This document shows, piece after piece, positions 4,229 through 56,741 of a stretch of 64,000 nt of DNA. Numbering within the stretch: position 1 is the first letter of the stretch; every line of letters starts with the position of its first letter. A program made the position numbers and the translations under genes. This DNA is from an uncultured Gemmatimonadales bacterium (GTDB taxonomy: Bacteria; Gemmatimonadota; Gemmatimonadetes; Gemmatimonadales; GWC2-71-9): assembly GCA_963828735.1 (NCBI GenBank), contig CAWHFW010000005.1, positions 2,464,001 to 2,528,000 on the forward strand. The letters run 5' to 3'. The notes under the pieces were generated by a model that was not told the origin of the DNA, searched no databases, and saw only the letters and a list, made by a program, of their open reading frames with translations.

Positions 4229-4492
4229 CAAACCGTGACATCTGAGTGAGTGAAACACAGCAACGTGCGGCACGAAATCCATCAAACGCCAGCATCGGGT
4301 GACACGAACTCGCGTGAATGCGTGCAAGTTGCTGGAATTCGGCTGCTCACCATGGCCCCTCTGGATCAGAAGAGCCCTGGTTCACCTTCGGTGGCCTTCG
4401 GCTCGAGCCCAGGAGGGGAATCAAGCCCGGCAACGACTTCGGTCGTGCGGGGCTTTCGCCTATCTGGGGGTGTGTGAGTTAGTGAGCGAGTT
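4229..4492 (+). repeat. att-like junction with 21-nt T-loop insert
   Basis: Left arm, core at 4359, insert 4383-4403, terminator, GTGTGAGTTAGTGAGCGAGT. Confidence 0.9.
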
Positions 4493-4513
4493 GCTTCGTG
4501 GATTCCCACGCGC

Positions 4514-4700
4514 TCACTTGTGACTCGGACTCGCCGGGTCAGTGCGAGCGGTCGGGGATCGCTCGAACTCGACCACCGACCGCAGGGTGTCGTCGTCGCA
4601 CTGCCGATAGCACTGCTGCAATGTCCCGATGTCGAGCCAGCCGCCCCCCGCCGCCACACCCAAGGAGATGGGGGGTGCTCCATGACGCGCCAGCCGGCGT
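4514..4700 (-). pseudogene. degenerate tyrosine recombinase C-terminal remnant
   Basis: VAAGGGWLDIGTLQQCYRQCDDDTLRSVVEFER aligns by eye with the other integrase tails. Confidence 0.65.
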
Positions 4701-4701
4701 A

Positions 4702-6075
4702 TCACTTCTCGCGCGGCTCCGAGAGCCTTCGCTCGTACCAGGAGAGAAGTGGCCGTGCGCTGATGCCGTGCAGCAGGATGCTGGCCGCAACGACGGAGAT
4801 CGTCACCCCCGCCAGCTCTGTCGCGGCCGGACCCGAGACGCCGTGGCTCAGGGCGTAGCTCAGGTAGTAGAGGCTCCCGATTCCGCGAATGCCGAACCAC
4901 CCCATGAGCCAGCGCTGCGAGTTCGTGGTCGGCGTGCCCACGAGCATCAGCCGGGTCGCGCCCGGGCGGATCACCAGCATGAGCAGGAGCGCGAGGGGAA
5001 CGGCCCGCAGGTCCCAGTGAGTCGTGAGGCACACCCCCACCAGAACCACCAGCAGCAGTTCAACCAGTCGCTCGACCGTATCACCGAACGAGATCGTCTC
5101 CGCCACCAGCACGCCCGCGGCGACTGCCGGCTCTCGCAGCTCCTCCGCCCCGACGCTCGCGCCGACCAGGTCCTCCGCCGGCGGATGTGACGAGGCCTCG
5201 GTCGCGGGATCCCTTACTGGCGGTGCCGGGCTCCGTACCTGCTCGGGATGCGGCGTCTCCCGCGTCACGTGCAGCTCGGCGTGGCGCAGGCCGACGCCGG
5301 CGGCGAAGGTCGCCAGGAATCCCCACGCGCCGATGGTTTCGGCGCCGACATAGGAGAGCGCGATGAGGGCGAGCGCCAGGAAGTCGCTCGGCGCATGGGT
5401 GTCCTGCTGCAGGCTGCGGAGCCAGATGGCTACTCGCCCCACCGCGCGGCCGAGCCCGAAGCCCAGGAGCAGACCGACGGGCACCGCCCACACTACCCGC
5501 GCCAGCACCCATTCGCCGATCCAGCCCCCTGGGCCGCCGTGCTCCGCCCAGATCAGGGCGAGGACGACGAAGGGAAACGCCGCGCCGTCGTTCAACCCGG
5601 CTTCGCCCGATAGCCCGTAGCGCACCCGGTCGTGGTCGGTGGCGCTATCCACCTTTACCATGCTGGCCAGCACCGGGTCGGTCGGGGCGAGCACCGCGCC
5701 CGCCAGCAGGGCCATCGCCGGATCCAGCCCGAGCAGCAGGTGGGCACACAACGCCACGCCGAGGATGCTCGCCACCATCACGGGCCCGGCGAGGCGATAC
5801 GCCGCGACCCAGGCGGGGTGCCGCAACGGCAGCCGCAGTTTAAGCCCGCCCACGAAGAGCGCGACGATCACCGCGATCGCAGTGAGCCGTTCGAACCACG
5901 GCCCCGCCTCGCGCAGGTCGATGCGTAGCCACCCGAAGCCAAGCGGACCGATGGCCACGCCCAGCGCCAGATAGATAGCCGACGTCGAGATCGGGAGGTT
6001 CCGCAGATAGGCGGAGGAGAGTGCCATCAGCAGCAGCACGAGGCCGCCGAGCGCCATCCAGCCGAGAAAGCTCAT
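4702..6075 (-). CDS. cation:proton antiporter (CPA1/NhaP family)
   Basis: LAPTDPVLA, GEAGLNDG and GWFGIRGIGSLYY motifs; multiple TM segments. Confidence 0.92.
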   Translation of the reverse strand: MSFLGWMALGGLVLLLMALSSAYLRNLPISTSAIYLALGVAIGPLGFGWLRIDLREAGPWFERLTAIAVIVALFVGGLKLRLPLRHPAWVAAYRLAGPVMVASILGVALCAHLLLGLDPAMALLAGAVLAPTDPVLASMVKVDSATDHDRVRYGLSGEAGLNDGAAFPFVVLALIWAEHGGPGGWIGEWVLARVVWAVPVGLLLGFGLGRAVGRVAIWLRSLQQDTHAPSDFLALALIALSYVGAETIGAWGFLATFAAGVGLRHAELHVTRETPHPEQVRSPAPPVRDPATEASSHPPAEDLVGASVGAEELREPAVAAGVLVAETISFGDTVERLVELLLVVLVGVCLTTHWDLRAVPLALLLMLVIRPGATRLMLVGTPTTNSQRWLMGWFGIRGIGSLYYLSYALSHGVSGPAATELAGVTISVVAASILLHGISARPLLSWYERRLSEPREK

Positions 6076-6155
6076 TGTGCTCAACGCCCCGTTGGTTCCA
6101 TCGCGTGCGGGCTAGTCGGAGGCGACGGCGCTGCGGTGGAGCCGGCGTTGTTCGG

Positions 6156-8852: not shown

Positions 8853-9099
8853 GCAAACTCCGACATTTGAGTGAGTAAAGTACGGCAAAGTCGAGCATGA
8901 AACCCAGCAAACTCCAGCATCGGGTGCCACGAACTCGCGTAAAGGGTAGCAAGTTGCTGGACTTCGGCTGGTTACCACGGCCCCTCTGGATCAGGAGAGT
9001 CCTGGTTCGAGCCCAGGAGGGGCAATCAAGCCCGGCAACGAGTTAGCTGTTGTCGGGCTTTGTCTATCTGCCCGCCTGCCGTAGTTTCGCCGTAGTTTC
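8853..9099 (+). repeat. att-like junction (no insert) with tandem GCCGTAGTTTC motifs
   Basis: Left arm, tRNA half 8984-9025, terminator, GCCGTAGTTTCGCCGTAGTTTC. Confidence 0.92.
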
Positions 9100-9411
9100 T
9101 CAGGTATGTCCTGCATCTAGACCGCGACGTTTCTCGGGTGCCTCCATCACCCTGAGCATGGAGACCTCATCTGTGTGCTGGTAGCAGGTAAGCAGCGTAT
9201 TGGTGTCTCGCCAGCCTCCTGCTGCCTTCACATCAACGATAGGGCGGTCCTTTCGTTCGGTTGCCCACTTGCGCCGATAGGGGTGCCAGACACCGCCTTT
9301 CAGGCGTTCCAGCCCGGATTTCTCTTCGGCAAGGCGAAGCTGCTGGCCAAGAATCTCCCGGGACCACGGTTCTGATCCATCGCCCGACGGGAATAGCCAC
9401 GTCTCGCCTAT
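9100..9411 (-). pseudogene. tyrosine recombinase C-terminal remnant (104 open codons, no start)
   Basis: Manual translation WLFPSGDGSEPWSREILGQQLRLAEEKSGLERLKGGVWHPYRRKWATERKDRPIVDVKAAGGWRDTNTLLTCYQHTDEVSMLRVM. Confidence 0.85.
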
Positions 9412-9658
9412 GCCTCGAGTTGGACCACACGAACCCTGTACTCGTCTCCCCAGTAACTGGGGTCGCCCTTGAGCGCCGCCCTCGCTTTACGCCGGATGGC
9501 CGCAAGAATTGCACGATCCGTTTCAACCCCGTCAAAGTCAGCGTAGGCGCGCTCAATCAGATTATCAAGACTGACGGCGTGCACCCAGTTACCAGTGTCA
9601 CAAAGGCTGCACGCCTGGACATTCGCGGGCAGCTGGGTCCTTCGGCCCGAAGTCCACG

Positions 9659-16142: not shown

Positions 16143-16354
16143 AGCAAACGTGAGCATTTGTGTGAGCAAACCACAGCAAAGTCGACCATCAGACCAAGCA
16201 AACCCCAGCATCGGGTGACACGAACTCGCATAAAGGTTAGCAAGTTGCTGGAGTTGAGCCGGTTACAACGGCCCCTCTGGATCAGGAGAGTCCTGGTTCG
16301 AGCCCAGGAGGGGCAACTCAAAGCGCGGTGGCTGCTTCGCAGCCGTCGCGCTTT
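16143..16354 (+). repeat. att-like junction (no insert), second terminator type
   Basis: Left arm, tRNA half 16275-16316, hairpin AAAGCGCGGTGGCTGC-TTC-GCAGCCGTCGCGCTTT. Confidence 0.92.
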
Positions 16355-21588: not shown

Positions 21589-21724
21589 CAGACTCCGACA
21601 TTTGAGTGAGGAAGGTACGGCAAGGTCGAGCATTCAAGCCAGCAAACCCCAGCATCGGGTGACGCGAACTCGCGTAATTGGTAGCAAGTTGCTGGAGTTT
21701 GGGTGGTTACAGCGGCTCCTCTGG
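21589..21724 (+). repeat. junction left arm ending in the anticodon loop
   Basis: Full left arm, then CTCTGG (21719-21724) and abrupt loss of similarity. Confidence 0.88.
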
Positions 21725-22428: not shown

Positions 22429-25401
22429 CTACTCAACACCGAGCCGCACCAGCCCTTCCCGCGCTTCCGCCACGTAGGGCAGCAGCTCCCGATCTGGTCG
22501 GCGCCAAGCCGCCAGCACGAAGCCGAAGCACTCGGCCGCCTTCCGCGCGTCCCCGAGCCGTTCGGCGATACGGCCGAGCTCGAGCGTGGCGAGCACGAAC
22601 GAGGGCGTGCTGCCGCCGCTCCACCGCCAGCGCTCCAGCACGGCGCCGGCGCGCCGATCGTCACCGCGAGCCGCCAGGAGCCGCGCCAGCGTCAGGTTCA
22701 GGTGAAAGCAGTTGGCGGTGTACCAGTCGGCCAGGCAGAGCGTGTCGGGGATCGCGCTCAGCTTCCGGATCGCCGCGCCCGTATCCCCTCGTGCCAGATC
22801 GAGGAACGCGACGCTCGTCTCTCCGAGCAGCCGAGCCCGCAGGGCCGCGTACGGGGTGGCGGGTGCCCGCGCCGTGCGAGCCGCCTGGGCGCCGAAGCGG
22901 CGCAGGGCCGCCGTGTCGCCGCGCGACAGCCACCAGGGCAGCCCCCTCAAGTGACGGGGAGTGTAGAAGAGCCCCCAGGCGGCAGTTGTCTCGAGGGAGC
23001 GACCGAAGGTCGCACGGGCCAGCGAGTCCGGAACGATCCCGAGCAGGCTGAGATCCACGGAAGGGGCGACTGAAGTCGCTCCACGGCGAGGCCAAGGGCT
23101 GGCGCAGCAGCCGCTCATTCACGGCATAGGCCTCGCGCAGGTGGCCCCGGAATGCGAGTGCGCGAGCCAGGTACTGCGGCCACATGACCGAGTCGCGGAC
23201 CCAAGGGACGACGCCTCCACCTGCGTCTCGGCCAGGCTCGCCGAGGCGCCGCAGCACCCGAATTGCGGTCTCGGCCGTGTCGGTCCAGGAGGAGAGCTGG
23301 TTGAGCGCAGCGCCCCAGATGGTGTAGACCGATGCCGTGTCGAGCATTCGCTCCGCCTCGGCTCTGCCGCCGGGACCCGGATCCAGCAACAGCGCCGCCA
23401 AGCGGATTTCGGATCCGTGCGGGGAGGTCGAGTCGAGGGCCAGGTAGGTGGCCGCGTAGCGCCGGGATTCCTCCGGGCGTCCAAGGGACAGAAGCAGTGC
23501 CGGCATGTGCTCGTAGGCTGGCCCGAAGCCCGGATCCAGCGCGATTGCGCGGGTGAAGGCCTCGAGTGACACGGCCGGCGGCCCGGCAATGGGCCATGGT
23601 TCGTGGTCCATGCGCCATTCGCCTAGCGCATACCAGGACACGGGGTCTTCGGGGTAGCGTCGGACCGCCTCCTCCGCCGCCGACACTGCGCGGAATTTCA
23701 GGTGGACGAACGCCTCCGCATCGGTCACCTCCGCCGCTGCGAGGTTGAAGGAGTCGGCGACGATGTAGAGACTGTCCCGCGGGGGAAGCCCGTGGTTGTG
23801 GAGGGTCGCACGCCGCCGGTACTCCTCTTGTGGCCGGTACGCGCCGGTCGTCGGCGGGTTCCAGCCGAGCACCATGGCCATCTGTGCCAGCGGCAGCGCG
23901 AACGTGCTGTCGGCCGCGATCGCCTGATCGTAGCGGGTGAGCGCCGAGTCCCACTGCCCCCGCCGGTAGAACTGTTCGCCCTGGAGGAACGCCTTCAGCG
24001 CCGGCAGCGACTTCGAGCCGATCGACGTCCCGCGGGCCGAGCCGATCGCCCGGGCGGGCGAGAGCACCCTCAGCGCCCGGATCCCCAGGGAGTCAGCCAG
24101 CTCGGCGATGCGGGCGGCCTCCCCCGACACCTCGATGTCCGTCTTTCCCATTCCTCCGGCACGGTCGAGCAGGGCGGCGCGGAGCGTCACCGAGTCCCGC
24201 CCTCGCCGCACCACCGCGCCGTAGAGGACCAGCCCCGCGCCGGTGCGGCGGCCCAGCTCCTCGGCGGATGTACGATCGGCCCGGCCGCTCCAGCGCCGGA
24301 GCACCACGCTCGGCGACACCGTGCGGATCGGGCCGGCCCCGTCGAGCGTGCGGGAGAGCACGTCGCCCATCCCCTCCCGCCAGACCTCGAGTGACGGCTC
24401 CAGCACCTCGAACGGGGCGACCGCGAGCAGGTTGGCGTCGCGGGCGTCTTCGGCGGCAGGCCGAGTGCGGAGCCAGACGCCGGCGCCGGCGAGAGCGACC
24501 AGGAGCACCGCCGCAGCGGCCAGCAGACCTCGTCGAACGGCCGGACTCACGGCCCCGCTGGGCGCGCCTGCCGCGGCTTCCAGCGCCCTCGCGAAGGCCG
24601 GCGCGTCCGCGAACCGGTCCGCCGGCGCGCGGGCCAGCGCCTGCCTTACGGCGCGCTCGACCGGTCGCGGGACGTCACGCACCGTGCAGAGGTCGGGCAC
24701 GGGATCCGTCAGCCGACGGGCGATGAGGGCCTGTGCCGTCCGCCCGGTGAACGGCGGCTCGCCCGCGAGCATCTCGTACACCACGCACCCGAGCGAGTAG
24801 ATATCGCTTCGGGGGTCGAGATGATGGTCGGCCGCGGCCTGCTCCGGACTCATGTAGGCCGGCGTGCCCAGCGCGAAGCCGGTCTCCGTCAGGCGCTCGC
24901 CGGCGGCGTCCACGGCTCGGGCGACGCCGAAGTCGGCGAGCACGCATCGCTCGCCCTGGAGCAGGATGTTCTCGGGCTTGACGTCGCGATGGATGATGCC
25001 CTGCCGCTGGGCGTATCCCAGCGCGTCGGCCACCGCCCGGGTGATCCGCACCGCATCCGCCAGCGGGAGCTGGGGCTCGCGCGTCAGTCGGTTCCGGAGC
25101 GACTCGCCCTCCACGTAGGGCATAGTGAACCAGAGCCGGCCGACAGTTTCACCGGAGTCGTGGACCGACAGGATGTGTGGGTGGTCGAGGCGGCCGGCAA
25201 GCTTGATCTCCCGGATGAACCGCTCGGGACCCAGCGCGTGCGCCAGCTCGGGATGCAGGACCTTCAGGGCGACCGGCCGGTCGTGCCGGAGATCGCGGGC
25301 GAGATAGACCGTGGCCATGCCGCCACGGCCGAGCTCACGCTCGAGCACGTAGCGGTCCCGGAACGCGTCGGCGAGCTCTTGGTTGACTGACGTCGCGTCA
25401 C
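22429..25401 (-). CDS. Ser/Thr protein kinase with TM and TPR region (frameshift near 23060)
   Basis: ELGRGGMATV, HRDVKPEN, DFG and GTPAYMSPE; C-terminus continues in ORF 22429-23118; start approximate. Confidence 0.88.
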
Positions 25402-25562
25402 TGCCTAAGGAGAGATACTGCAATGTGTCGGGCGAACTCGGGCGCCGCCAGCCGCGATTCGAGGCTTCCGGATCGGAGAGAGCAACAGCGGTAACGCTGC
25501 TCGTCAGTCCACGGGCTCGTAACGGACCGCTCCGTCGGCGATGATGATGTGCCTCAGTCCCG

Positions 25563-25709
25563 ACAAACTCTGACATTTGTGTGAGTAAAGTACGGCAAAG
25601 TCGAGCATGAAACCCAGCAAACTCCAGCATCGGGTGCCACGAACTCGCGTAAAGGGTAACAAGTTGCTGGACTTCGGCTGGTTACCACGGCCCCTCTGGA
25701 TCAGGAGAG
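25563..25709 (+). repeat. junction truncated after the variable loop
   Basis: Left arm nearly identical to the 8853 copy; ends at CTCTGGATCAGGAGAG. Confidence 0.9.
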
Positions 25710-25727
25710 GCCCAGCTGCGTCCGGTC

Positions 25728-28700
25728 TCAGTGCCGGCCCGCGGCACGAAGGAGCTCGGCCAGCTCGATTCGGACCGTGTCAGCTTGAGCCCTGAGCCGG
25801 GGCTCGGGGGCACTCCGAAGCGCGAGATAGTGACGATAGGCCCGGATCGCGCCCGCCGTGTCACCCAGTGACGCTGCGAGGCGGCCCTCTTCCCGGCGAT
25901 AGCGCACGTAGTGAGGATAGGTGGCGCAGCCGATGATCCGCCGGCGAAGGGCGGCCAGCGCAGCCGCCGTATCGCCGGCGTCCTCGTGGAGTCGCGCGGC
26001 GACCAGGTTGCCATAGGTGAAGAGTGGGGGTCTGCCGAAGTCGAAAACGTTGAAAGGCATCCGCGGGTTCGCCAGCACGGAGTCGAGCTGCCGCAGGCGC
26101 ATCCGGGCTTCAGGTGAGCCTTCGCGCGCATCGAGTTGAGCTTCGAGCAGTAGCGCAAAGGCGCGAGGCTCGTCGGCCTGCCACACGCTGTCGGGGTGGG
26201 GCTTTGCCCCGCGGAGGTCGGCAATGGCTAGACGCACCGGGCTCAGGTTACCGACCTTCAGGTTGTACTGGCCCGCCGCGTAGCGCGCCAAGGTTGCGTC
26301 GCGATCTGCGGCGGCGAATCGTGATCCAAGTTGCCGCTCCAGGCTTCGTGCCCCCTCGGCGGCTTGCCCGGAATCACCATCGGCAAACAGCCCGTCTAGT
26401 ACGGCGAGACTCTGCCCGCCAATGCCTGGCCAAACCCTTGAGAGGGGGGGCGATTTACCGGGCCGTCCAGAGGTCAGCTCGTAGCGACTCCAGAGTAAGG
26501 CAGCGAGCTTCCGTTCCTCCGCGGTCGCCGCCTGAGCGTACGCGCGTCGGTATAAGTGCTCCACGCCGCCGGTGTCGAGAGGCACGGCTCCGTCCAAGGC
26601 ATTGACGAGCAGATTTGTCGGCAAGGGGCCGAGGGCGCTGTCGCTCGCGAGCAATCGCCGGGCTTCTGCCGTATCACCCAGCCATACGGCGGGATGCCAC
26701 AGCCGCGCAATCGTGAACGACGACACGGAGTCTACTTGCCGGAGGAGGGCTCGCCCGCGAAGCACGCCGGCCGTATCATCGAAGAGCGCGGCGACCTCGG
26801 TCAAGTGCTGAAGGGTTGGGGCGTAGCTCGAGTCGAGCGTCAGCGAGCGAGCAAAGGCTGCGACTGCACGCGGAAGTGCCTCGGGTACGCTGGCCAGGGC
26901 GCCAAGGTGGAAGAGGCCGTCGGCGAGCTTGTACCATGCGTCCGGGCTATCCGGAGCCAGCTCCACGAGGCGCTCCGTCGTTTCCACCATGTCGCGCGCC
27001 CCGGAAGGTGCGGGGTACCTCGGGCCGAGTTGAACGGTGAGGCGGGCCAGATCTCGGGCCGACAAGCGATCGCGGTGGCGCCAGGCAGCCTCCACGGGTG
27101 CATCGCTTCGTCCACTCGTCTGCCACTCGCCGGCTCGCGCCGTGCCCACGCCCGCGAGCGCGAAGGTGGAATCGATCTGGAACGCGTTGACGAACTTCTC
27201 GGACGCTTCACCGAACCTGCCTCGCCTCAGCAGCGCCTCGCCGTCCAGGTAGGCCCGCAGCGCCGGCAGTGACGTGCTGGTGAGCCCAGCGAGCCGCTGC
27301 TCCCCCTCTCCCGACCCGAGCGCGAGGAGGGTCGCCGCCAGGCGGTCCACGAGCTGCGTCAGGCTGTCCGGCGAACCCTCCGCCGTCGCGCGGGCACGCA
27401 CCGACCCGCTCGGCACGTCCACGATGCGGGCGCTCAGGGAGACCCTGCCGCGACTGCCGACGACTTCCCCTTCCACCATCCGTCCCGCACCGAGAGCTGC
27501 AGCCACCCGGACCGCGTCGTCCTCAGGCAGCTCACCGCCTCCGCGCGAGGCGCGGCCCCAGGCGGCCAGGAGCGTTCGGGGGTCTGCCGGCCGCAGGGCC
27601 GCCGTGCCGCTCAGCTTGGTCGACAGGAGGTCTACCATTCCCTCCCGCAGGTAGCCGAGTGAGGAATCCGCACCGGTGACCCGGAAGGGGGCGACGGCGA
27701 TGACGCTCCGGTCGAGGGCCACCGGCCGCTCATGGTTTCGCATGAGCGCCACCATGGCCACGAGCGTCAGGGCCGCGCCGCCGCCTGCCACGAGCCAGCG
27801 GGTGCGGTGGGACCCTTCCTGGTGCCGCGCTGGGGCCCGCTCGAGGACATGGGTGGCGGCCGGCGTCGCGACGCTGGGCCGAAGCGACTGGGCCATCTCA
27901 CCCGCCGACGCGAACCGGTCCGCCGGCGTGCGGGCGAGCGCGCGCTGCACGACGTCGTCCACGTCAGCCGGCACCTCCGGCCGCGTCACGCGAACGGGCG
28001 TAGGCGAAGTGCTGAATCGCTTCGCCATGATTGCCTGCGCCGTAGGTCCCGTGAACGGCGGCTCACCGCAAAGCATTTCGTACAGCACGCATCCCAGTGA
28101 GTAGATGTCGCTTCGGGCATCGAGCTGGCGCTCACCTGCCGCCTGCTCCGGGCTCATGTACGCGGGGGTGCCCACGGTGAGCCCGGTCTGGGTCAGCGCC
28201 TCCTCGCTCGCGAGCGCGCGGGCCACCCCGAAGTCCGCGATGAGCGTGTTGCCGTCACGGGTGAGGAGCAGGTTCTCGGGCTTGATGTCGCGGTGGAGGA
28301 CGTCGTGCTCGTGGGCGTATTGGAGGGCCTGTGCCGCTTCGCGCCCGATCCGGAGGGCGTCCTCGAGCGAGAGCTGCCGGTCGCGCGTCAGTCGCTCGCG
28401 CAGGCTCTCGCCCTCGACGTACGGCATGGTGAACCAGAGCTGTCCACCCGACTCGCCCGAGTCGAGCACGGTGAGGATGTGCGGGTGCTGCAACCGGGCT
28501 GCATAGCGGATTTCGCGCTGGAAGCGATCGGGACCGAGCGTGGTGGTAAGGTCAGGGTGGAGTACCTTCAGCGCCACCGATCGGTCGTGCCTGAGGTCGT
28601 GCGCGAGATAGACCGTAGCCATGCCACCACGGCCGAGCTCGCGCTCGAGCGTGTAGCGGTCGGTCAGGGCGGCCTTGAGGCTTTCCAGAGGCTCGGTCAG
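25728..28700 (-). CDS. Ser/Thr protein kinase with TM and TPR-like region
   Basis: HRDIKPEN, DFG, GTPAYMSPE; frame stays open upstream of 28622 (ALTDRYTLERELGRGG); start approximate. Confidence 0.9.
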   Translation of the reverse strand: MTEPLESLKAALTDRYTLERELGRGGMATVYLAHDLRHDRSVALKVLHPDLTTTLGPDRFQREIRYAARLQHPHILTVLDSGESGGQLWFTMPYVEGESLRERLTRDRQLSLEDALRIGREAAQALQYAHEHDVLHRDIKPENLLLTRDGNTLIADFGVARALASEEALTQTGLTVGTPAYMSPEQAAGERQLDARSDIYSLGCVLYEMLCGEPPFTGPTAQAIMAKRFSTSPTPVRVTRPEVPADVDDVVQRALARTPADRFASAGEMAQSLRPSVATPAATHVLERAPARHQEGSHRTRWLVAGGGAALTLVAMVALMRNHERPVALDRSVIAVAPFRVTGADSSLGYLREGMVDLLSTKLSGTAALRPADPRTLLAAWGRASRGGGELPEDDAVRVAAALGAGRMVEGEVVGSRGRVSLSARIVDVPSGSVRARATAEGSPDSLTQLVDRLAATLLALGSGEGEQRLAGLTSTSLPALRAYLDGEALLRRGRFGEASEKFVNAFQIDSTFALAGVGTARAGEWQTSGRSDAPVEAAWRHRDRLSARDLARLTVQLGPRYPAPSGARDMVETTERLVELAPDSPDAWYKLADGLFHLGALASVPEALPRAVAAFARSLTLDSSYAPTLQHLTEVAALFDDTAGVLRGRALLRQVDSVSSFTIARLWHPAVWLGDTAEARRLLASDSALGPLPTNLLVNALDGAVPLDTGGVEHLYRRAYAQAATAEERKLAALLWSRYELTSGRPGKSPPLSRVWPGIGGQSLAVLDGLFADGDSGQAAEGARSLERQLGSRFAAADRDATLARYAAGQYNLKVGNLSPVRLAIADLRGAKPHPDSVWQADEPRAFALLLEAQLDAREGSPEARMRLRQLDSVLANPRMPFNVFDFGRPPLFTYGNLVAARLHEDAGDTAAALAALRRRIIGCATYPHYVRYRREEGRLAASLGDTAGAIRAYRHYLALRSAPEPRLRAQADTVRIELAELLRAAGRH

Positions 28701-28764: not shown

Positions 28765-28990
28765 CGCAATTGCTACCGTTTCTGCTACAGTTTCTCCGGG
28801 CAAAACCGGGCATTTCTGGGCAGGGAAGCGGGCACCATGCTCGGTAAGTGACCGTTTCCGGGCAACTTGACCGGAACCGCTGCCCCGGCGGTACCGACTC
28901 TGGATCAGGAGAGTCCTGGTTCCAGCCCAGGAGGGGCAACTCGAAGGTCCGACCCTGCTTCGGTGGTGTCGGGCCTTTTCGCTACCGTTC
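28765..28990 (+). repeat. att-like junction with an unrelated left arm
   Basis: TGCTACCGTTTC-TGCTACAGTTTC at 28771-28794; tRNA half 28898-28939; hairpin; GCTACCGTT at 28981. Confidence 0.85.
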
Positions 28991-32052: not shown

Positions 32053-32281
32053 GGCAAGGTCCGACACTTGAGCAAGTAAAGCACGGGCAAGAGTCCGGCA
32101 TCAAATCCAGCAACTCCGCATCGGGTGACACGAGCTCGGTGAAGGGTGCAAATTGCCGGAGTTCGGGCGGTACAACGGCCCCTCTGGATCAGGAGAGTCC
32201 TGGTTCACCTGCGGTGGCCTTCGGCTCGAGCCCAGGAGGGGCAACTGAAAGCGCGATGGCTGCTGGCAGCCATCGCGCTTC
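32053..32281 (+). repeat. att-like junction with 21-nt T-loop insert
   Basis: Left arm with several 1-nt indels, core at 32182, insert 32206-32226, second terminator type. Confidence 0.9.
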
Positions 32282-33242: not shown

Positions 33243-33464
33243 GGCAAACTCCGACATTTGAGTGAGTAAAGGACAGCAAAGTCCGACATGGAAGCCGCAA
33301 AGTCTGGCAGCGGGTGGCGCGAACTCGCGTAAATGGTGGCAAGTTGCCGGAGTTTGAGCGGTTACAGCGGCCACTCTGGATCAGGAGAGTCCTGGTTCAC
33401 CTGCGGTGGCCTTCGGCTCGAGCCCAGGAGGGGCAATGCCCACCGTGGCAACGGTGGGCATTTT
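33243..33464 (+). repeat. att-like junction with 21-nt T-loop insert, third terminator type
   Basis: Core at 33374, insert 33398-33418, AATGCCCACCG..CGGTGGGCATTTT. Confidence 0.9.
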
Positions 33465-33481: not shown

Positions 33482-36157
33482 TCACCGCGCCTCCAGTTGC
33501 GCCACCCAGATGTCGCTTTCTTGGTCTCCGATGGTGCAGTAGAACGTTCGGCCGTCGGTGCTGAAGCCGTAGCGGATATGCTGGCGGGTGGGGTCGTCGA
33601 ATCTCACCAGCAGTCGCGAAGTGCCACCCGTCACCGGTACCGACCGGATCGACGACCCGAGTGGACCCTTGGCTACATAGTAGACGGTCTTCCCGTCGGG
33701 CGACCACGCAGCGAAGAAGGCCTCTTCGCCCGTCGACGTGTTAGGCACGATCAGGCGCGAGGCGCCGGCGGGTGACATTACCTGCAGGCCCTGCGAACTG
33801 TGGAAGGCGATCAGATCCTCGGTCGGTGACCAGTGCGCGAAATCCCCTGCGACCGGGATGGTCCGCATTGCGCTCCCATCCAGTGGAACGAGAATAAACG
33901 TCGAGGCGGCAAGGTAAGTCGAAGTAGCTCCGGACTTCTTGTCGGCCGGGATGACCATTCCGACCAGCTCGTGTCCGTCTGGCGACCACGCCGGGTCGAG
34001 CTCGTGCGCCGGGCTGCTGGTACGTTGGATTACCCCGGATCCGTCGGCCGCCATCGTGTAGAGATCGCGATTCCCGGTACGTATGGAGTGGAACGCAATC
34101 TGGTGCCCGTCCGGTGACCAGGCAGGGCTGTAAGCGCCGGCCGAATCGGTGGTGAGCTGAATCGCTTCTCCTCCGGCCGCCGGCATCTTGTAGATCTGCC
34201 AACTGCCGTTGCGGTCCGAGTTGAACACCAGCCACCGCCCATCCCGGGAGACATCGACGGTTTCGATTGTCTGGTCGCCCGTCGTCACCGGCCGTGCCCC
34301 GGCGATCGACACGGCCCTCGAGGTTGGAACGGGTATGGACCAGATGTTGGAAAGCGTGCGAAAGCGCGCATAGGCGAGTCGTCGCCCGTCAACGGAGAGG
34401 CTGATCGTGTGGGCGTCGGCCCCGGTGGTGAGCCGTTCCGTCTCGCCGGCCGGCGCGCCCGATGCATCGAGGCGGACTCGGTAGACGTCTCGGCTCCCAC
34501 CCCGATCCGAGACCCAGAACAGATGCCGACCGTCTGGGGCCCACTGCGGGCTAATGTTCAGATGCTGGTCTGCGGTCACCCGGATGGCGGGACTGCCGTT
34601 CACGGGCAGCACCCAGATGGAAGAGGGGAACTCATTTCCGAAGTAGACACTGCCAAAGACGAAGTCGGGATTGTCCGCTACGCCCGCGAGGCGGGTACCA
34701 TCGGGGGACCAGGTTAGCGAGTGCACGTCGCGCACCCCGGTGAGGTGGGTGGCTGCCCCTTCCCCGATCGGTACCACCGTAACGTCACGGCCGATTCCAG
34801 TACTGTAGGCGATGCGTCGCCCGTCAGGCGACCACGCGAATCCACGGAGCCGGGTGAACGCGCTCGTGGTTGACTCCGCGAGCTGAGCCTCGAGCCGCAC
34901 CACAAGCCGTGGTTGCCCCCCGAGCGCCGGCACCACCGCGATGCCGTCTTCGCCCTGATACGCGATTCGCGACCCGTCTGGTGACCACCGAGGCCAGCGG
35001 TACCCCTGAGAGGAGTCAGAGGTCAGCGCGATGGTGCGCCCGCCACCGACCTGGCGGACGAAAATCTGCATTCGTGTAGGCGGACCCGCAGCGTACGCGA
35101 CCAGACTGCCGTCGGGTGAGAGCGCGGGATCGACCTCCAGCCCCGGATCGCGCGTGACCTGCACGGTCTGGCCAATGGTGAGTGCGGAATCGCCGTGGCC
35201 GACGCGCAGGCTGAGGAGCACGGCCGCCGCGATGGCGCCGAGGATTGCGAGGCCGGCGATCATCATCCGCCGCCGCGGCGAACCCTTCGGAATCGCGGGA
35301 GGCGGGAGTGGCTGTTGCGCCGAGAGCGCCTCGGCAAACTGGCCGACCGGGTTGAAGCGATCGGCAGGGTTCTTGGCCAGCGCACGCTCGAGGGCCGCCG
35401 CGACAATGCCCGGCACCGCGGGCCTGATCTGGGTGATGGGAGGCGGGGTCGCGGTAAGATGCTGATGAGCGATGCTCTGAACCGTGGGGCCGGAGAATGG
35501 CGGCTGACCCGCCAGCATCTCGTAGAGAACGCACCCGAGGGCATAGAGATCGGTTCGCCCGTCGACGTCCCTGTCTCCCGCGACCTGCTCCGGGCTCATG
35601 TACGCCGGCGTCCCGAGCGCGAGTCCCGTGCCGGTGAGTCTCTCGGCTCCGGTCGTGCTCACCGCTCGCGCGATGCCAAAGTCCGCCACCAGCGCGTGGC
35701 CGCTCTCGAGCAGGATGTTCTCCGGTTTGATATCGCGATGGATCACTCCGTGTCCGTGCGCGTAGCTCAGCGCGTCCGCTACCTGGCCCGCGATGCGTAG
35801 CGCGTCGTCGAGGGGAAGCTGCTTCTCGCGCTTCAGCCGTTCGCGCAGCGATTCCCCGTCGACGAAGGGCATGACGTAATAAAGGAGAGCGCCGGATGGT
35901 TCCGCCGTACGCCCCGAGTCATACAACGGGAGGATATGGGGATGGCGCAGGTTGGCGGTGGTCGCGATCTCGCGCAGGAAGCGCTCGGGTCCGAGGGCGT
36001 GAACCAGCGCGGGTCGGAGCACCTTTATGGCGACCTTGCGATCGTGCTTGAGGTCATGCGCGAGATAGACCGTCGCCATCCCGCCCGCGCCAAGCTCGCG
36101 GTCGAGGCGGTAGCGATCGGCCAGGGCGTCCTGAAGTCGCGCTTGGAGGTCGGACAA
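33482..36157 (-). CDS. Ser/Thr protein kinase with TolB/PD40 beta-propeller repeats
   Basis: Kinase motifs, TM helix, many WSPDG repeats; TTG start inferred. Confidence 0.92.
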   Translation of the reverse strand: MSDLQARLQDALADRYRLDRELGAGGMATVYLAHDLKHDRKVAIKVLRPALVHALGPERFLREIATTANLRHPHILPLYDSGRTAEPSGALLYYVMPFVDGESLRERLKREKQLPLDDALRIAGQVADALSYAHGHGVIHRDIKPENILLESGHALVADFGIARAVSTTGAERLTGTGLALGTPAYMSPEQVAGDRDVDGRTDLYALGCVLYEMLAGQPPFSGPTVQSIAHQHLTATPPPITQIRPAVPGIVAAALERALAKNPADRFNPVGQFAEALSAQQPLPPPAIPKGSPRRRMMIAGLAILGAIAAAVLLSLRVGHGDSALTIGQTVQVTRDPGLEVDPALSPDGSLVAYAAGPPTRMQIFVRQVGGGRTIALTSDSSQGYRWPRWSPDGSRIAYQGEDGIAVVPALGGQPRLVVRLEAQLAESTTSAFTRLRGFAWSPDGRRIAYSTGIGRDVTVVPIGEGAATHLTGVRDVHSLTWSPDGTRLAGVADNPDFVFGSVYFGNEFPSSIWVLPVNGSPAIRVTADQHLNISPQWAPDGRHLFWVSDRGGSRDVYRVRLDASGAPAGETERLTTGADAHTISLSVDGRRLAYARFRTLSNIWSIPVPTSRAVSIAGARPVTTGDQTIETVDVSRDGRWLVFNSDRNGSWQIYKMPAAGGEAIQLTTDSAGAYSPAWSPDGHQIAFHSIRTGNRDLYTMAADGSGVIQRTSSPAHELDPAWSPDGHELVGMVIPADKKSGATSTYLAASTFILVPLDGSAMRTIPVAGDFAHWSPTEDLIAFHSSQGLQVMSPAGASRLIVPNTSTGEEAFFAAWSPDGKTVYYVAKGPLGSSIRSVPVTGGTSRLLVRFDDPTRQHIRYGFSTDGRTFYCTIGDQESDIWVAQLEAR

Positions 36158-36250
36158 GTTGGTCGCCAGAGGGAGAGTGCCCAAAAATGAGTTGGCGGGG
36201 ACCCGGTCGCCAGTCGGGCAGCCCTGAAGGGATCTCTTGGAAGGGACTCC

Positions 36251-36507
36251 GGCAAACTCCGGCATGTGAGCGAGTAAGGCCCGGCAATGTCCGGCATCCA
36301 AGCCGGCAAACTCTGGCAGCGGGTGGCACGAACTCGCGTAAAGGTTGCAAGTTGCTGGAATTTGACTGGTTACAACGGCCCCTCTGGATCAGGAGAGTCC
36401 TGGTTGACCTCAAAAGGTCGCCTTCGGCTCACCTGCGGTGGCCTTCGGCTGGGAGCCCAGGAGGGGCAACTCGAAGCGCGGTGGCTGCGTGGCAGCCACC
36501 GCGCTTT
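36251..36507 (+). repeat. att-like junction with 45-nt T-loop insert
   Basis: Core at 36382, insert 36406-36450, second terminator type. Confidence 0.9.
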
Positions 36508-38373: not shown

Positions 38374-38437
38374 TTCGAGCCCAGGAGGGGCAACTCGGAA
38401 CGAGATAGGCACTTAAGGAGCTATCCCGTTTCTCTTT
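38374..38437 (+). repeat. partial junction starting at the T-loop
   Basis: TTCGAGCCCAGGAGGGGCAA then imperfect hairpin and T-rich tail. Confidence 0.8.
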
Positions 38438-42811: not shown

Positions 42812-43113
42812 CAAGTCCGAGCATTTGTGAGAGTAGAGTACGGCAAAGTCCGGCATGAAACCCAGCAAACCCCAGCATCGGGTGGCACGAACTCGCGTAA
42901 ATGGTGGCAAGTTGCCGGAATTGGGGTGGTTCCAGCGGCCCCTCTGGATCAGGAGAGTCCTGGTTGACCTCAAAAGGTCGCCGGCTCACCTCCGGTGGCC
43001 TTCGGCTCGAGCCCAGGAGGGGCAACTGAAAGCGCGGTGGCTGCTTGGCAGCCGTCGCGCTTTGCTTATTTGCGGGGGTGTGTGAGCAGTGTGTGAGTTA
43101 CTGCGTGAGTTAC
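42812..43113 (+). repeat. att-like junction with 42-nt T-loop insert and three GTGAG motifs
   Basis: Core at 42942, insert 42966-43007, terminator, GTGTGAGC/GTGTGAGT/GCGTGAGT. Confidence 0.92.
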
Positions 43114-43645: not shown

Positions 43646-44473
43646 CTAGGGAAGCGCGGCAGAAAACTCCGCCATGCTCGTGAATCGCTCGGCAGCCGAT
43701 TTAGCGAGCGCCCGACCCAGGGCCTCATCAACCGTCTCCGGCACGGTGGCCCGAAGCCGCCGAGCCGAGGGCACGGGTGTTCGGAAGATTCGGGTGACCA
43801 CTTGGTGCGCCAGCGCCCCCGCGTAGGGAGGTTCGCCGGTCAACATCTCGTACAGAAGGCAGCCCAGACTATAGATGTCGGCCCGCTGGTCCAGCTCGCG
43901 CTCGCCGAGTAGTTGCTCCGGGCTTATGTAAAACAGGGTCCCCACCATGATTCCTGTATCGGTCAGCTTGCGATAGTTCGCGACGCCGAGGGCCCGGGCC
44001 AGCCCGAAATCCGCAACCAGCGCCCGGGGTTCGGCAAGGAGGATGTTCCCCGGCTTCACATCCCGGTGCAGGATGCCTAGGCCGTGGGCGTACCCGAGCG
44101 CCTCGGCCACGTCGTGCGTGATCCGGAAGGCTTCCTCCAGAGAGAGCTGACGCTCCCGATCCAACCGCTGATGAAGTGAGCCGCCTTCGATGTACGGCAT
44201 ACTGTAGTAGGGCACCTCGCCGGCGTCCCCAGACTCAAGCAGGGGCAGGATGCTTGGGTGCGAGAGCGACGCGGCTATCTCCATCTCGCGCCGAAATCGC
44301 TCGGTGTCGAGCGTAGCGCTCAGATCACGGTGCATGATCTTGATGGCCACCGGCTGTCGCTGGCGGACGTCGTGCGCGAGGTACACCGTGGCCATCCCAC
44401 CGCGCCCGATCTCGCGTTCAATCAGATAGCGGTCGCGGAAGGCCTGAGGGAGTGGTGAGGGTGTTGCGGTCAC
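43646..44473 (-). CDS. Ser/Thr protein kinase (catalytic domain only)
   Basis: EIGRGGMATV, HRDVKPGN, DFG, GTLFYISPE. Confidence 0.92.
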   Translation of the reverse strand: MTATPSPLPQAFRDRYLIEREIGRGGMATVYLAHDVRQRQPVAIKIMHRDLSATLDTERFRREMEIAASLSHPSILPLLESGDAGEVPYYSMPYIEGGSLHQRLDRERQLSLEEAFRITHDVAEALGYAHGLGILHRDVKPGNILLAEPRALVADFGLARALGVANYRKLTDTGIMVGTLFYISPEQLLGERELDQRADIYSLGCLLYEMLTGEPPYAGALAHQVVTRIFRTPVPSARRLRATVPETVDEALGRALAKSAAERFTSMAEFSAALP

Positions 44474-44608: not shown

Positions 44609-44860
44609 GCGAACCCCTTCATTTGCGCGAGTTAAGTACGGCAGGGTCCAGCAACCAACTCGGCAAACTCCAGCATCGGGTGACACGAACTCGCGTGAAT
44701 GCTAGCAAGTTGCTGGGGTTCAGCCGGTTACCACGGTCCCTCTGGATCAGGAGAGTCCTGGTTGACCTCAAAAGGTCGCCTTCGGCTCACCGTCGGTGGC
44801 CTTCGGCTCGAGCCCGGGAGGGGCAATGGCTCCCGCGACAGTGGGAGCCGTTTCCTTTTT
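44609..44860 (+). repeat. att-like junction with 45-nt T-loop insert, fourth terminator type
   Basis: Core at 44740, insert 44764-44808, GGCTCCC..GGGAGCC hairpin. Confidence 0.9.
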
Positions 44861-46630: not shown

Positions 46631-46880
46631 AGGATGGCAAAGTCCGGCATCGAAGCCAGTGAACCCCAGCGGCGGGCGACACGAACTCGTGTCAATGGTT
46701 GCCAGTTGCTGGAACGCGGATAGTAATTCTGGCCCCTCTGGATCAGGAGAGTTCTGGTTGACCTCAATAGGTCGCCTTCGGCTCACCTCTGGTGGCCTTC
46801 GGCTCCAGCCCAGAAGGGGCAATGAAGTCCGCAACGGCTTGCTGTTGCCGGGCTTCGTCTATTTATCCACCTGCCGTAGG
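46606..46880 (+). repeat. att-like junction with 45-nt T-loop insert
   Basis: Core at 46736, insert 46760-46804, first terminator type, GCCGTAG. Confidence 0.9.
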
Positions 46881-50429: not shown

Positions 50430-50448
50430 TCGAGCCCAGGAGGGGCAA
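50430..50448 (+). repeat. isolated tRNA-Gln 3' end (T-loop to acceptor)
   Basis: TCGAGCCCAGGAGGGGCAA exact match to the junction core. Confidence 0.75.
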
Positions 50449-50460
50449 TTGGACTCCGTC

Positions 50461-53671: not shown

Positions 53672-53926
53672 GGCAAGCTTCGACGTCTGTGTGAGCAAAG
53701 GCGGGCAGAATCCAGCATTCAGCACAGCCAACTGCAGCATCGGGCGACACGAACTCGCGTGAATCGTTGCAGTTGCTGGAGTTTGGGCAGCTACTGCGTC
53801 CCCTCTGGATCAGGAGTGTCCTGGTTGACTTCAAAAGGTCGCCTTCGGCTCACCTGCGGTGGCCTTCGGCTCGAGGCCAGGAGGGGCAACTGAAAGCTCT
53901 GCAACGGATTTTGTTGTGGAGCTTTT
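53672..53926 (+). repeat. att-like junction with 45-nt T-loop insert, fifth terminator type
   Basis: Core at 53803, insert 53827-53871, AAAGCTCTGCAAC..GTTGTGGAGCTTTT. Confidence 0.9.
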
Positions 53927-54029
53927 CTGTTTTTCAGCTGCCCTTGGTGTGTGCTCCGCTGTGGGTTCCTGACCCGTTGCTGTCACGCGAGCTCAAGCCC
54001 CGCGCCGAGGATGAGCACGCGCCTCTTGA

Positions 54030-54695
54030 TCACGCCATCGCCGGCTGCGGGACGAGGCGAAGGTAAGGCTTCAGCTGTTTCCAGCCGTTCGGATAGAGGG
54101 TCTTGGCCTCATCGTTCGACACCGAGGGCACGATGATGACGTCCTCGCCCGGCTGCCAGTTGACGGGAGTCGCGAGGCGGTGCTTGGCGGTGAGCCGCAT
54201 CGAGTCGATGACCCGAAGGATCTCGTCGAAGTTTCGGCCCGTGGTCATAGGGTACGAAATGGTGAGCTTGATCTTCTTGTCTGGCGCTATGACGTACACC
54301 GTACGGACGGTCTGGTTGTCGGCGGCAGTGCGAACGCTGGCGTCTCCTTCTGTCGCGGCGGGGAGCATGTCGTAGAGTTTCGAGACGGCCAGCGTCGGGT
54401 CGCCGATCATCGGGAAGTTCGGGGCGACGCCCTGCGTCTCCTCGATGTCTTTGGCCCAGCCCTCGTGCTTGTCGACGGGGTCGACGGAGAGGCCGATGAC
54501 CTTGACTCCGCGCTTGTCGAATTCGGGTTTGAGCTTCGCCACGTAGCCGAGCTCCGTCGTGCAGACCGGCGTGAAGTCTTTGGGGTGCGAGAACAGGATC
54601 CCCCAGGCGTCTCCGAGCCAGGCGTGAAACGAGATCGGCCCGTGGGTGGTGTCGGCGCGGAAGTCGGGGGCGGTGTCGGCGATTCTGAGGGACAT
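54030..54695 (-). CDS. 1-Cys peroxiredoxin (Prx6 family)
   Basis: FSHPKDFTPVCTTE and GRNFDEILR. Confidence 0.95.
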   Translation of the reverse strand: MSLRIADTAPDFRADTTHGPISFHAWLGDAWGILFSHPKDFTPVCTTELGYVAKLKPEFDKRGVKVIGLSVDPVDKHEGWAKDIEETQGVAPNFPMIGDPTLAVSKLYDMLPAATEGDASVRTAADNQTVRTVYVIAPDKKIKLTISYPMTTGRNFDEILRVIDSMRLTAKHRLATPVNWQPGEDVIIVPSVSNDEAKTLYPNGWKQLKPYLRLVPQPAMA

Positions 54696-54828
54696 GGCTA
54701 TCTCCTTTTGGGTGTTGAGTCCGATTGCAAAGGGACGTTAACGACCGTACGTTCCCTGAGCGTTCCCCCAGTGCGCTCGGTCCGGTGACGCGGATTTGCG
54801 GGCGCGGGTGGCGCCTCAGGCAGGTACA

Positions 54829-56544
54829 ATGCGCGTCCAGATCCTCCTGCTCGGCCAGTTCCGTGTCAGCGTTGGCGACACCGTCATCCCCGCGGACGCC
54901 TGGCGCCGCGAGCGTGCCGCCGCTCTCGTGAAGCGCCTGGCGCTGCTCGCGCGACATCGTCTCCACCGCGAGCAGGCGATGGAACTGTTCTGGCCGGACC
55001 TGGACTCGGATGCCGCGGGTGCGAACCTGCGAAAGGCCATCCATTTCGCTCGGCGCTCACTGGGCGAGCACGACCTGCTCGAAGTGAACGGCGATATCGT
55101 CGCCCTCGCGCCGAGAGCCGAGCTCGTCATCGACACCGAGGAGTTCGACGCTGCCGCCAAGGCGGCACTCAGCGGCCAGGGTGGCAGCGAGTGCAAGCGA
55201 GCGGCGGACCTGTACGGCGGAGAGCTCCTACCCGACGACCGCTACGTGGAGTGGCTGGAGGAACCGCGGCAGCAGCTGCGGGAGCTCTACGCGCGAGTGC
55301 TCAAGACGGGCAAGCTGTGGGAGCGGCTGGTCACACTCGATCCGACCGACGAGCAAGCCCAATGCGCACTCATGCAGGCAGCGCTCGACGCCGGGAACCG
55401 CGCCGAAGCGATCCGGCTGTTTCAGCGCCTTCGGGAACTATTGCGCATCGAGCTCGGCGTGGGGCCGAGAGCCGCCACCATCGCGATCTACGAGCGCGCG
55501 CTCGCGATGTCGGGGGTCGCGCCCGTTAGTCCCGTCGATGGCATCCGCGCCTCTCTTGCCTGGGGGCTCGTTCATCTCCAAAGCGGTGATTTCGCGAAGG
55601 CCGAGAGCATCGCCAGGGAGACGCGCGACCTGGCTCTCGGGGCCGAGCTTGGGCGCGAGGTGGGAGAGGCCAGCGCGCTCCTCGGACTGGCCGCGCACAT
55701 GCGGGGCCAGTGGCGGGATCTATTCCTAACGGAATTCACGGAGTGGATTCGCGCCGCGCCGAAGTTCGCCTCGAACATGTTCGACGGACACCTGTGCTTG
55801 GCCCAGTTCTGTCTCTGTGGATCGAGCGGTCTCGAGGAGACGCGGAGCACTGCGCAGGAGCTGCTCTCGGTCGCGGAGCGCGAGGGCTCGGTCGCAGGGC
55901 GCGCGCTCGCGCTGGTGTGCCTGGGCGAGGCCGAGCTCTTCTCGGGCCGGCTCGATGAAGCCGAGCGGCTCCTGGATGAAGCCGAGCGCCTCCATGTCGA
56001 GAGTGGGACGGCCGCAGGGCGCGCGCTCGCTCTCGAGCGGCTGGCGGAGATCGCGCTCTTGCGTGGTCAGAAGTGGCGGGCAGGCCGCATTGTCCAGCGA
56101 GCGGAGCGTGTCGCCCAGACGAGCTGGCTAACGCCGCACCTCCTCATCCGTCTGAAGGGCCTTGCCGTGCAGACAGCATCGACCCCGGAAAAGGCCGCCA
56201 AAGTCATCCTGGAGGGCGATCGAGCGCTGGCGGGCGGGAGCAGCTGCCAACCTTGTTCGATGGGATTTCGTGCCGCGGCCGCGATAGCGCTCGCCGAGGC
56301 GGGCGAACTGGAACAGGTCGGCCGGCGGCTCGACGAAGCCGAGCGCCTGGCTGGCATGTGGAGCGGCGGCCCGTGGGTCGCGGCCCTGTGGGAGGCGCGT
56401 GGCGTGCAGCGCAGGGCCCAAGGCAGCGAAGAGCGAGCTCTGGCGGCTTTCAGCGAGGCGGCCGAACGGTTCGGGGAGCTGGGGCGGCCACTCGATGAAG
56501 CGCGCTGCCGGGGCCGGATGAAACTCGCTACCGCCGCCCACTGA
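54829..56544 (+). CDS. SARP/BTAD family transcriptional activator with TPR-like region
   Basis: LLGQFRV, LHREQ...FWPDL, YGGELLPDDRY; divergent from the peroxiredoxin. Confidence 0.88.
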   Translation: MRVQILLLGQFRVSVGDTVIPADAWRRERAAALVKRLALLARHRLHREQAMELFWPDLDSDAAGANLRKAIHFARRSLGEHDLLEVNGDIVALAPRAELVIDTEEFDAAAKAALSGQGGSECKRAADLYGGELLPDDRYVEWLEEPRQQLRELYARVLKTGKLWERLVTLDPTDEQAQCALMQAALDAGNRAEAIRLFQRLRELLRIELGVGPRAATIAIYERALAMSGVAPVSPVDGIRASLAWGLVHLQSGDFAKAESIARETRDLALGAELGREVGEASALLGLAAHMRGQWRDLFLTEFTEWIRAAPKFASNMFDGHLCLAQFCLCGSSGLEETRSTAQELLSVAEREGSVAGRALALVCLGEAELFSGRLDEAERLLDEAERLHVESGTAAGRALALERLAEIALLRGQKWRAGRIVQRAERVAQTSWLTPHLLIRLKGLAVQTASTPEKAAKVILEGDRALAGGSSCQPCSMGFRAAAAIALAEAGELEQVGRRLDEAERLAGMWSGGPWVAALWEARGVQRRAQGSEERALAAFSEAAERFGELGRPLDEARCRGRMKLATAAH

Positions 56545-56550
56545 AGGCGG

Positions 56551-56741
56551 AGTCGCGGGAATTGGGGTGGTTACAGCGGCCCCTCTGGATCAGGGGAGTC
56601 CTGGTTGACCTCAAAAGGTCGCCTTCGGCTCACCTGCGGTGGCCTTCGGCTCGAGCCAAGGGGGGCAATGAAGCCCGGCAACGAATCAGCTGTTGCCGGG
56701 CATCGTCGATTGCCTACCTGCCGTAGTTCCGCCGTAGTTTC
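56551..56741 (+). repeat. att-like junction (left arm truncated) with 45-nt insert and tandem GCCGTAGTT motifs
   Basis: Core at 56583, insert 56607-56651, terminator, GCCGTAGTTCCGCCGTAGTTTC. Confidence 0.9.

Follow-up and report, generated by a model that had tools for sequence, protein, structure and literature searches.

A Family of 21-24-nt Hairpin Modules at the T-Loop of Displaced tRNA-Gln Halves in a Gemmatimonadales Genome

Results

Modules in the tRNA-Gln Halves

A stretch of 64,000 nucleotides from an uncultured Gemmatimonadales bacterium, here called the window, was analyzed. It is part of contig C5 of the 4.8 Mb source genome (G000). An intact tRNA-Gln(CTG) gene, which carries no insert, lies 6.2 kb upstream of the window and is followed by an array of tRNA-Gln 3′ halves, which match the gene from the anticodon loop (CTCTGGA) onward. 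Nine of the displaced halves in the window contain a total of 15 modules of 21-24 nt. The module consists of a 4-bp hairpin, a second hairpin GCC-TKC-GGC and a final T, and is located at the T-loop point GGTT^CGAG, which we take to be between T55 and C56 of the tRNA. The point is identical each time (with an ambiguity of one T), no target duplication is seen, and removal of the module would restore the site exactly.

The sequence-only reading of this DNA described three states of the tRNA half, namely empty, with one module and with two, and all three are present. Four halves are empty (985-1028, with gene identity from the anticodon loop, 8984-9026, 16275-16316, and 28898-28939, which follows an upstream arm of another type); these and all inserts below are on the plus strand. 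Three halves carry a single 21-nt module. The one at 4383-4403 (tRNA half 4359-4420) reads CACC-TTC-GGTG, GCC-TTC-GGC and T, and those at 32206-32226 (half 32182-32244) and 33398-33418 (half 33374-33436) have the loop TGC. In the remaining six, a GACC module precedes a 21-nt CACC module. These double inserts are found at 36406-36450 (modules 36406-36429 and 36430-36450, half 36382-36469), 42966-43007 (42966-42986 and 42987-43007 with loop TCC, half 42942-43025), 44764-44808 (44764-44787 and 44788-44808 with loop GTC, half 44740-44826), 46760-46804 (46760-46783 and 46784-46804 with loop TCT, half 46736-46822), 53827-53871 (53827-53850 and 53851-53871, half 53803-53889) and 56607-56651 (56607-56630 and 56631-56651, half 56583-56668).

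The CACC/GGTG stem is unbroken in 9/9 modules while the loop varies (TGC five times, and TTC, TCC, GTC and TCT once each), as had been noticed. The earlier description of the layout held, with small corrections. At 42966 the first module is 21 nt and not 24 nt long, as TTC is gone from its second hairpin; the 3 missing nucleotides are present in a contig from an independent run. The flank at the 46760 site reads TCTGGTT and not CCTGGTT. The loop of the 46760 module is CAAT, the GACC module at 53827 has one stem mismatch, and an extra G follows the 36430 module.

Chance does not account for the modules, as their pattern gave 14 matches in the window and none in each of 100 dinucleotide shuffles. 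The sequence GCCTTCGGC alone occurs 15 times in the window vs 1.6 expected. The 44764 double module and the 970 nt of unique DNA that follow it are spanned by a 1,020-nt contig from independent run X5, which aligns without gaps and shows 4 differences. An assembly artefact was therefore ruled out.

Structure of the Module

The structure was studied in 180 modules from a set of 136 sites that were parsed in full. The first hairpin is 11 or 14 nt long in 160 modules, and the stem count is limited to these, which leaves out 20. The genome and metagenome sets may overlap and related genomes are not independent, so all counts given here describe the set and are not probabilities. Five genomes are flagged as unpublished (G003, G065, G095, G096, and G359). 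A perfect 4-bp first stem was found in 147/160 modules of canonical length, compared with a mean of 47 and a maximum of 65 when the arms were shuffled (n = 2,000), and in 136/149 once the unpublished genomes were removed. Five stem types occur (CACC, GACC, GGCC, GGGC, and CACG), and three of them were found with both loop classes. In a formal count, both sides change at 3/4 pairs of the first stem, which upholds the proposal that the structure is constrained. Among 30 distinct 24-nt modules this count gave 25 both-side changes, a value reached by 0/500 shuffles and inflated by related sequences. Imperfect stems are present in 13/160 integrated modules, and 3/6 GACC modules of the window are altered. 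Because integrated copies decay, the constraint probably acts on the moving form and not on each integrated copy.

The loops follow a rule as well. T-N-C loops with a free middle base were found in 48/53 three-base first hairpins and in 175/180 second hairpins, and a T-N-C loop on the sense strand is G-N-A on the antisense strand. Of the six-base loops, 86/107 are closed by C and A on the sense strand and hence by a T-G wobble on the antisense strand, and with DNA parameters it is the latter strand that folds lower in 47/57 distinct modules. GNA mini-hairpins are described as very stable as DNA and far less so as RNA (PMC13037366). Together, these features suggest that the substrate would be single-stranded DNA, and specifically the antisense strand. 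One point favors the sense strand: target and module both end in GGYT right before the junction, like the target and right end of IS608. Every member of the insert family fits one formula, in which a part X with complementary 4-base ends is followed by a three-pair hairpin and T. A 20-nt variant made of the three-pair hairpin twice, and one site with a 10-nt hairpin only, were also seen in metagenomes (loci L234, L250, L258, L284, L288, L291, L340, and L313).

Specificity and Distribution

The second hairpin alone (GCCTTCGGC) occurs at the background level of the genome, with 297 copies vs 117-625 for 8 control 9-mers. The first stem followed by GCCTKCGGCT gave 17 matches in G000. The array accounts for 13 of them, and the remaining 4 have no T-loop flanks. 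This search beyond tRNA contexts showed that the module is specific for the T-loop. The background count and the clustering of 13/17 matches in the array rule out a genome-wide REP-like repeat (repetitive extragenic palindrome), which had been named as the alternative.

A strict pattern found inserts in 13/102 other genomes of this genus of soil bacteria, and at least 25 such genomes carry modules according to a list compiled by hand from less strict searches and from retrieved arrays. The records in which these sites recur are labeled Gemmatimonadales or Gemmatimonadota. A metagenome scan returned 119 loci, of which 116 were parsed into 106 distinct sites. Across 301 genomes of the order, a pattern too narrow for measuring range matched in 8, and among the rows read, real T-loop modules are in G000, G026 and G307 only. 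The matches in G185, G100, G195 and G050 look like chance, judged from the matched string. Eleven records of the genome scan with titles outside Gemmatimonadota were checked; 10 are chance matches, and one (L189), possibly a mis-binned record, agrees with a Gemmatimonadales site. The generic module pattern matched twice in viral contigs, both times by chance. A search with Rfam, the RtT family included, gave no match at the module sites.

A Long Sister Form and Exclusion from Live Genes

In relatives, inserts of 66-87 nt were found at the same T-loop point. They begin with CGAGCCC of the tRNA, carry its 3′ end and terminator, and finish with the complement GGGCTCG, the same second hairpin and T. 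The long form thus rebuilds the tRNA gene, whereas the short form destroys the T-loop. Among 23 intact tRNA-Gln genes, the short form was present in none and the long form in 9, one of which is from an unpublished genome; one further "long" call (L004) was a false positive of the search pattern. The earlier claim that copies with the short module could not rebuild a normal tRNA is supported by this count, in which none of them is a working gene. In displaced halves the short form was found in 62/119. Without the unpublished genomes, the figures for the short form are 0/21 intact genes and 54/109 displaced halves. In metagenomes, a tRNA 5′ half lies upstream at 0/84 short sites vs 5/10 long sites. 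The short module is also absent at the first site behind the tRNA in 8/10 arrays. In other genera, the junction is occupied in the same way by modules of 42-75 nt, in tRNA-Pro, -Leu, -Phe and -Val copies; a module of G307, in tRNA-Val, is 21 nt long.

Stacking of Modules

Stacks contain up to four modules, and 17 distinct stacks in many orders were observed. Neighboring modules rarely have the same stem (3/44 vs 12.5 when shuffled). Within a genome, the module type is shared by 35/74 pairs of sites for the 5′-most module and by 55/74 for the 3′-most, vs 190/1,357 and 230/1,357 pairs between genomes. Without G000, within-genome sharing is 22/46 and 27/46; these counts rest in part on unpublished genomes. 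The downstream terminator family makes little difference to sharing (19% vs 17%), all upstream arm types were found with modules behind them, and one double module of the window precedes at least three terminator families. Short modules therefore follow the genome and not the cassette. From the genome-level sharing, the stack orders, the rarity of like neighbors and the usual lack of a short module at the first site we infer that one variant at a time sweeps the spare T-loops of a chromosome, in waves, and that stacks are built in this way.

In the window, two modules stand at each of the six distal sites and one at those nearer to the gene, an order that fits growth on the CGAG (3′) side. The unpublished genome G096 and the decay pattern fit growth on the 5′ side; imperfect stems were counted in 3/32 5′-most and 9/32 3′-most modules, a difference that is not significant. 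No short module lies behind a long one, which carries no weight for polarity, as the T-stem is missing there too.

The Host Array

The array extends over ~107 kb, from G000 C5:2457709 to at least 2564600, past both window ends; a decayed half with a module was seen near C5:2564540. A conserved arm of ~125-140 bp precedes most tRNA halves. An example that resembles an attP arm (family D1) lies at 42819-42941 on the plus strand, outside the module. Two window cassettes open with integrase remnants on the minus strand: the C-terminal remnant of a tyrosine integrase at 9103-9462, which matches the full integrase at tRNA-Gln in genome G100 at 48%, and a more decayed one (38%) at 1112-1375. The full-length PF00589 relative in G100 faces the tRNA-Gln gene. 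An identity block that starts at the anticodon loop and an integrase facing the tRNA, the two defining features of an integrative element of the anticodon-loop type, are thus both present. The module-bearing joints belong to an ordinary tandem island array with assorted cargo, made by anticodon-loop integration. The sequence-only reading had offered recombination scars as one explanation of the modules. A scar of the cassette integrase is unlikely, as the crossover in the anticodon loop is about 17 bp off and the module type is independent of the cassette type.

The G100 element at tRNA-Gln is 12.4 kb long (L077:2269-14560) and encodes the full integrase, an HTH protein, an M78 peptidase, two PLD nucleases and two methylases; no relative of its integrase was found in viral contigs. 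The cargo of the array includes five Ser/Thr kinase open reading frames (ORFs) at 22661-25630, 25728-28622, 33482-36301, 43646-44473 and 61063-62733, several with TPR or beta-propeller domains, and two BTAD-TPR regulators. Truncated attachment (att) copies, which either keep arm and core and lack the T-arm or consist of only the right part, lie in the window at 21589-21724, 25562-25712, 2961-2995, 38374-38393 and 50430-50449. Elsewhere on C5, four att-like tRNA-Gln copies were found, none with a module. Distant att-like copies at C5:517256-517393, 721344-722693 and 753625-753714 are close to other tRNA clusters. A match resembling the c-di-GMP-I-GGC riboswitch (60695-60809, minus strand, E 4e-6, 40.7 bits, under the gathering score) sits upstream of an epoxide hydrolase-like ORF. 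The genome has two differing transfer-messenger RNA (tmRNA) genes (C4:172777 and C5:2756475), and the stated contamination of the assembly is 5.2%.

Discussion

Proposed Mechanism and Search for an Enzyme

The explanation that we prefer, with confidence evenly balanced for and against, is that the modules are non-autonomous mobile elements, which a putative enzyme acting in trans would insert in situ as folded single-stranded DNA, in successive waves. Joining of the module ends would give a dumbbell of 21-24 nt, whose 7-bp duplex has a single bulged base and, on the antisense strand, GNA-type loops as caps. The module may move in this form, with an enzyme that transfers one strand cutting the dumbbell at its bulge and joining it into the T-loop. 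Such an enzyme would most plausibly be of the HUH class, because a tyrosine recombinase would seem to need a larger duplex than 7 bp. Short forms would survive only in spare halves, and the long form would be tolerated on a live gene, so that their distribution could reflect survivorship. As a side effect, a cassette marked by a module could no longer re-enter the live tRNA gene. A bolder version is offered tentatively, as a possibility about which we have considerable doubt. It holds that single-stranded dumbbell circles of 21 nt, inserted by structure into tRNA T-loops, are the smallest mobile elements yet seen, that they exist in gene-restoring and selfish forms, and that the stacks are a chronological record of invasion waves on island cassettes, locking marked cassettes out of the live gene.

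Several points weigh against the preferred explanation. No enzyme, free circle or excision product was observed, and no gene-bearing element with the same ends was found among 142 genome and 106 metagenome sites. We know of no mobile unit as small as 21 nt. The source genome gave no match to the Y1 transposase (PF01797), RVT_1, IS110, the IS91 zinc domain or Cas1. The Y1 gene of the genus is missing from G000 and six other genomes, and its flanking hairpins are different. The stacking polarity is contradictory, as the order in the window indicates the 3′ side and G096 together with the decay pattern the 5′ side. Finally, gene conversion among att copies could also give within-genome sharing.

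The search for the transfer enzyme covered further families. PF04986 had no match in G000, and its control matched nowhere either, so this blank means little. Among five module-rich genomes, RVT_1, IS110 and the IS91 zinc domain were found in G096 only, with no module beside the 7 loci read, and Cas1 in 0/5. The 18 ORFs of the full G100 element gave no HUH or reverse transcriptase match. An integron-like integrase, named from its translation, in G113 C4 (L221) has no module within 1.5 kb. The Y1 gene is present at a syntenic locus in 19/25 module-bearing vs 31/77 other genomes, counts that include unpublished genomes and kin that are not independent. The 33 Y1 loci read in the genus have no module within about 400 bp, and over that distance a lone GCC-TNC-GGC word stands at only 2 of them; in 23 of the 33, the gene adjoins an ATP-synthase delta gene (named from translation). 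These IS200-like loci (L204-L208, L377-L403) are often without obvious IS ends, and some have REP-like hairpins of their own. The fixed-locus Y1 gene is possibly domesticated, and we regard it only as a lead to the transfer enzyme. Joints in DNA contigs that skip modules were ruled out as excision evidence, as empty att copies can give them.

Alternative Explanations

The alternative that survives best, although we hold it to be unlikely, is that the modules are remnants of a larger T-loop-integrating element, left by deletion or excision and copied among att copies by gene conversion or integrase-mediated exchange. Larger members share the end words (CACC-TGC ... GGTG, the three-pair hairpin and T), which makes the short form resemble a product of internal deletion. 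That the genome and not the cassette sets the module type also suits copying, and the att copies have about 40 bp and long arms in common. However, perfect stems were kept through at least four separate double changes and in two loop classes, which is unexpected of deletion remnants. The 17 stack orders and the shortage of like neighbors (3/44) speak against copying as well. The terminators right behind identical modules differ, so that conversion tracts under about 60 bp would be needed, and the large element itself is missing from the same 142 and 106 sites.

A second possibility, which we consider improbable, is a domesticated lock, in which the insert blocks cassette excision or re-entry into the live tRNA, to the benefit of host or cassette, and its structure is maintained by selection for this role. 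The modules widen the distance from the crossover to the downstream arm by 21-45 bp, and both the absence of the short form from all 23 intact genes and its usual absence from the newest site (8/10) are as expected of a lock. These last two patterns are, however, predicted by survivorship alone. The decay of integrated copies (13/160 imperfect stems and half of the six window GACC modules) does not suit selection for such a benefit, further modules in a stack give a lock nothing, and the insertion is outside the anticodon-stem core. Locking is plausible as a side effect.

It is also quite improbable, in our judgment, that the modules are written and not moved, with a reverse transcriptase or primase-polymerase adding them at a T-loop nick from a template located elsewhere, in the manner of telomerase or CRISPR. 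The outcome, stacked units with a constant and a variable part, fits writing, and the antisense strand holds CCGAAGG, given in PMC13037366 as a mini-hairpin of a primase signal. Against this, RVT_1 was unmatched in 4/5 module-rich genomes and Cas1 in all five, G000 has no donor copy beyond the array, and the long form bears locus-specific terminators, which fits excision from DNA.

Removal of the module as an intron-like or small RNA piece from read-through transcripts is very improbable: although the site is a tRNA loop and the sense strand could fold as RNA, the loop rule is a DNA rule, the carriers have no tRNA 5′ half, so that splicing could yield no tRNA, an intron would be tolerated in a live gene and yet 0/23 carry the insert, and Rfam is blank at the module sites. 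The RNA runs X18-X20 have no coverage of these sites.

Significance

If the modules are mobile, as in the dumbbell mechanism set out above, they would set a new lower size limit for mobile elements and point to an undescribed enzyme that recognizes about 7 bp of folded DNA and a tRNA T-loop. Such an enzyme would be a compact tool for site-specific insertion. Its substrates would be oligonucleotides of 21-45 nt, so the biochemistry is cheap once candidate enzymes exist. In tRNA island arrays, the stacks may serve to date when cassettes were acquired. Long unexplained, the tRNA-linked repeats of E. coli (TLR, RtT) could also become open to test, because they have building blocks in common with the modules.

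Comparison with Known Systems

The setting of the modules resembles the tandem tRNA/tmRNA islands, for which a report on Dehalococcoides ssrA (PMC3146451) describes stacked integrase-less cassettes bounded by gene-end repeats. Insertion points in the T-loop are known from such islands. In contrast, the crossover of the present cassettes is in the anticodon loop, and the modules form a gene-less second layer in the leftover repeats. The modules also differ from CRISPR arrays, as their variable parts are drawn from five stems and two loop classes and are not unique foreign spacers, and Cas1 was absent from the five genomes searched. Integron attC sites cross over at G/TT in a GTTRRRY box, and the module junction is unlike this one. 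They are further set apart by the module duplex of only 7 bp, by the lack of an ORF in 21-87 nt and by the lack of an integron integrase beside the array. What the two would share is folding of one strand with an extrahelical base beside the inferred crossover (PMC2727003), a feature predicted here for the joined form only.

The tRNA-linked repeats of E. coli are likewise structured, gene-less tandem units that end in a copy of a tRNA 3′ end. They have three-pair GNA mini-hairpins and, like the long form described here, also carry the tRNA end in antisense. They have no known function according to PMC8144298. Their unit is 178 bp, the junction is two bases further (after G57), and the GNA loops are on the sense strand. 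They always restore the gene; a short form that destroys the T-loop is absent. Their typical feature, an end in 18-19 bp of the tRNA 3′ end with the gene intact, is found in the 66-87-nt form and not in the 21-24-nt form.

REP sequences and bacterial interspersed mosaic elements (BIME), moved by TnpA-REP (RAYT), are gene-less palindromes of 20-50 nt found in tandem clusters, in which they are similar to the modules, and are served by an HUH enzyme in trans, as the modules would be. TnpA-REP cleaves at the dinucleotide C-T (PMC8266576), and the right junction of the module contains C-T. The 180 modules listed have no GTAG-type tetranucleotide, however. They are clustered (13/17 in one array), while REP sequences are dispersed as hundreds of intergenic copies. 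The modules are all head to tail, G000 has no Y1 gene, and the Y1 gene of the genus bears other hairpins.

Elements of the IS200/IS605 family, such as IS608, share hairpin ends and the lack of target duplication, and their removal reseals the site, as it would at the module junctions, with one shared T. Both also keep a short target word outside one end and have one like it within the opposite end, GGTT and GGCT here and TTAC and TCAA in IS608 (PMC5934647). The module differs in its length of only 21-24 nt, in having no transposase gene and in stacking. It has a single unpaired base beyond the loops, so there is no guide tetranucleotide 5′ of the hairpins. The target of IS200/IS605 elements can be any tetranucleotide, whereas that of the module is one tRNA T-loop. 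Judged by this comparison, the module appears to behave most like a non-autonomous IS200/IS605 or REP element while lacking the features that define either. In the literature searched, with subscription papers and supplements outside its scope, no published description of such modules was found. We conclude that these modules are a real, structure-constrained and apparently undescribed family of T-loop insertions, which is likely mobile.

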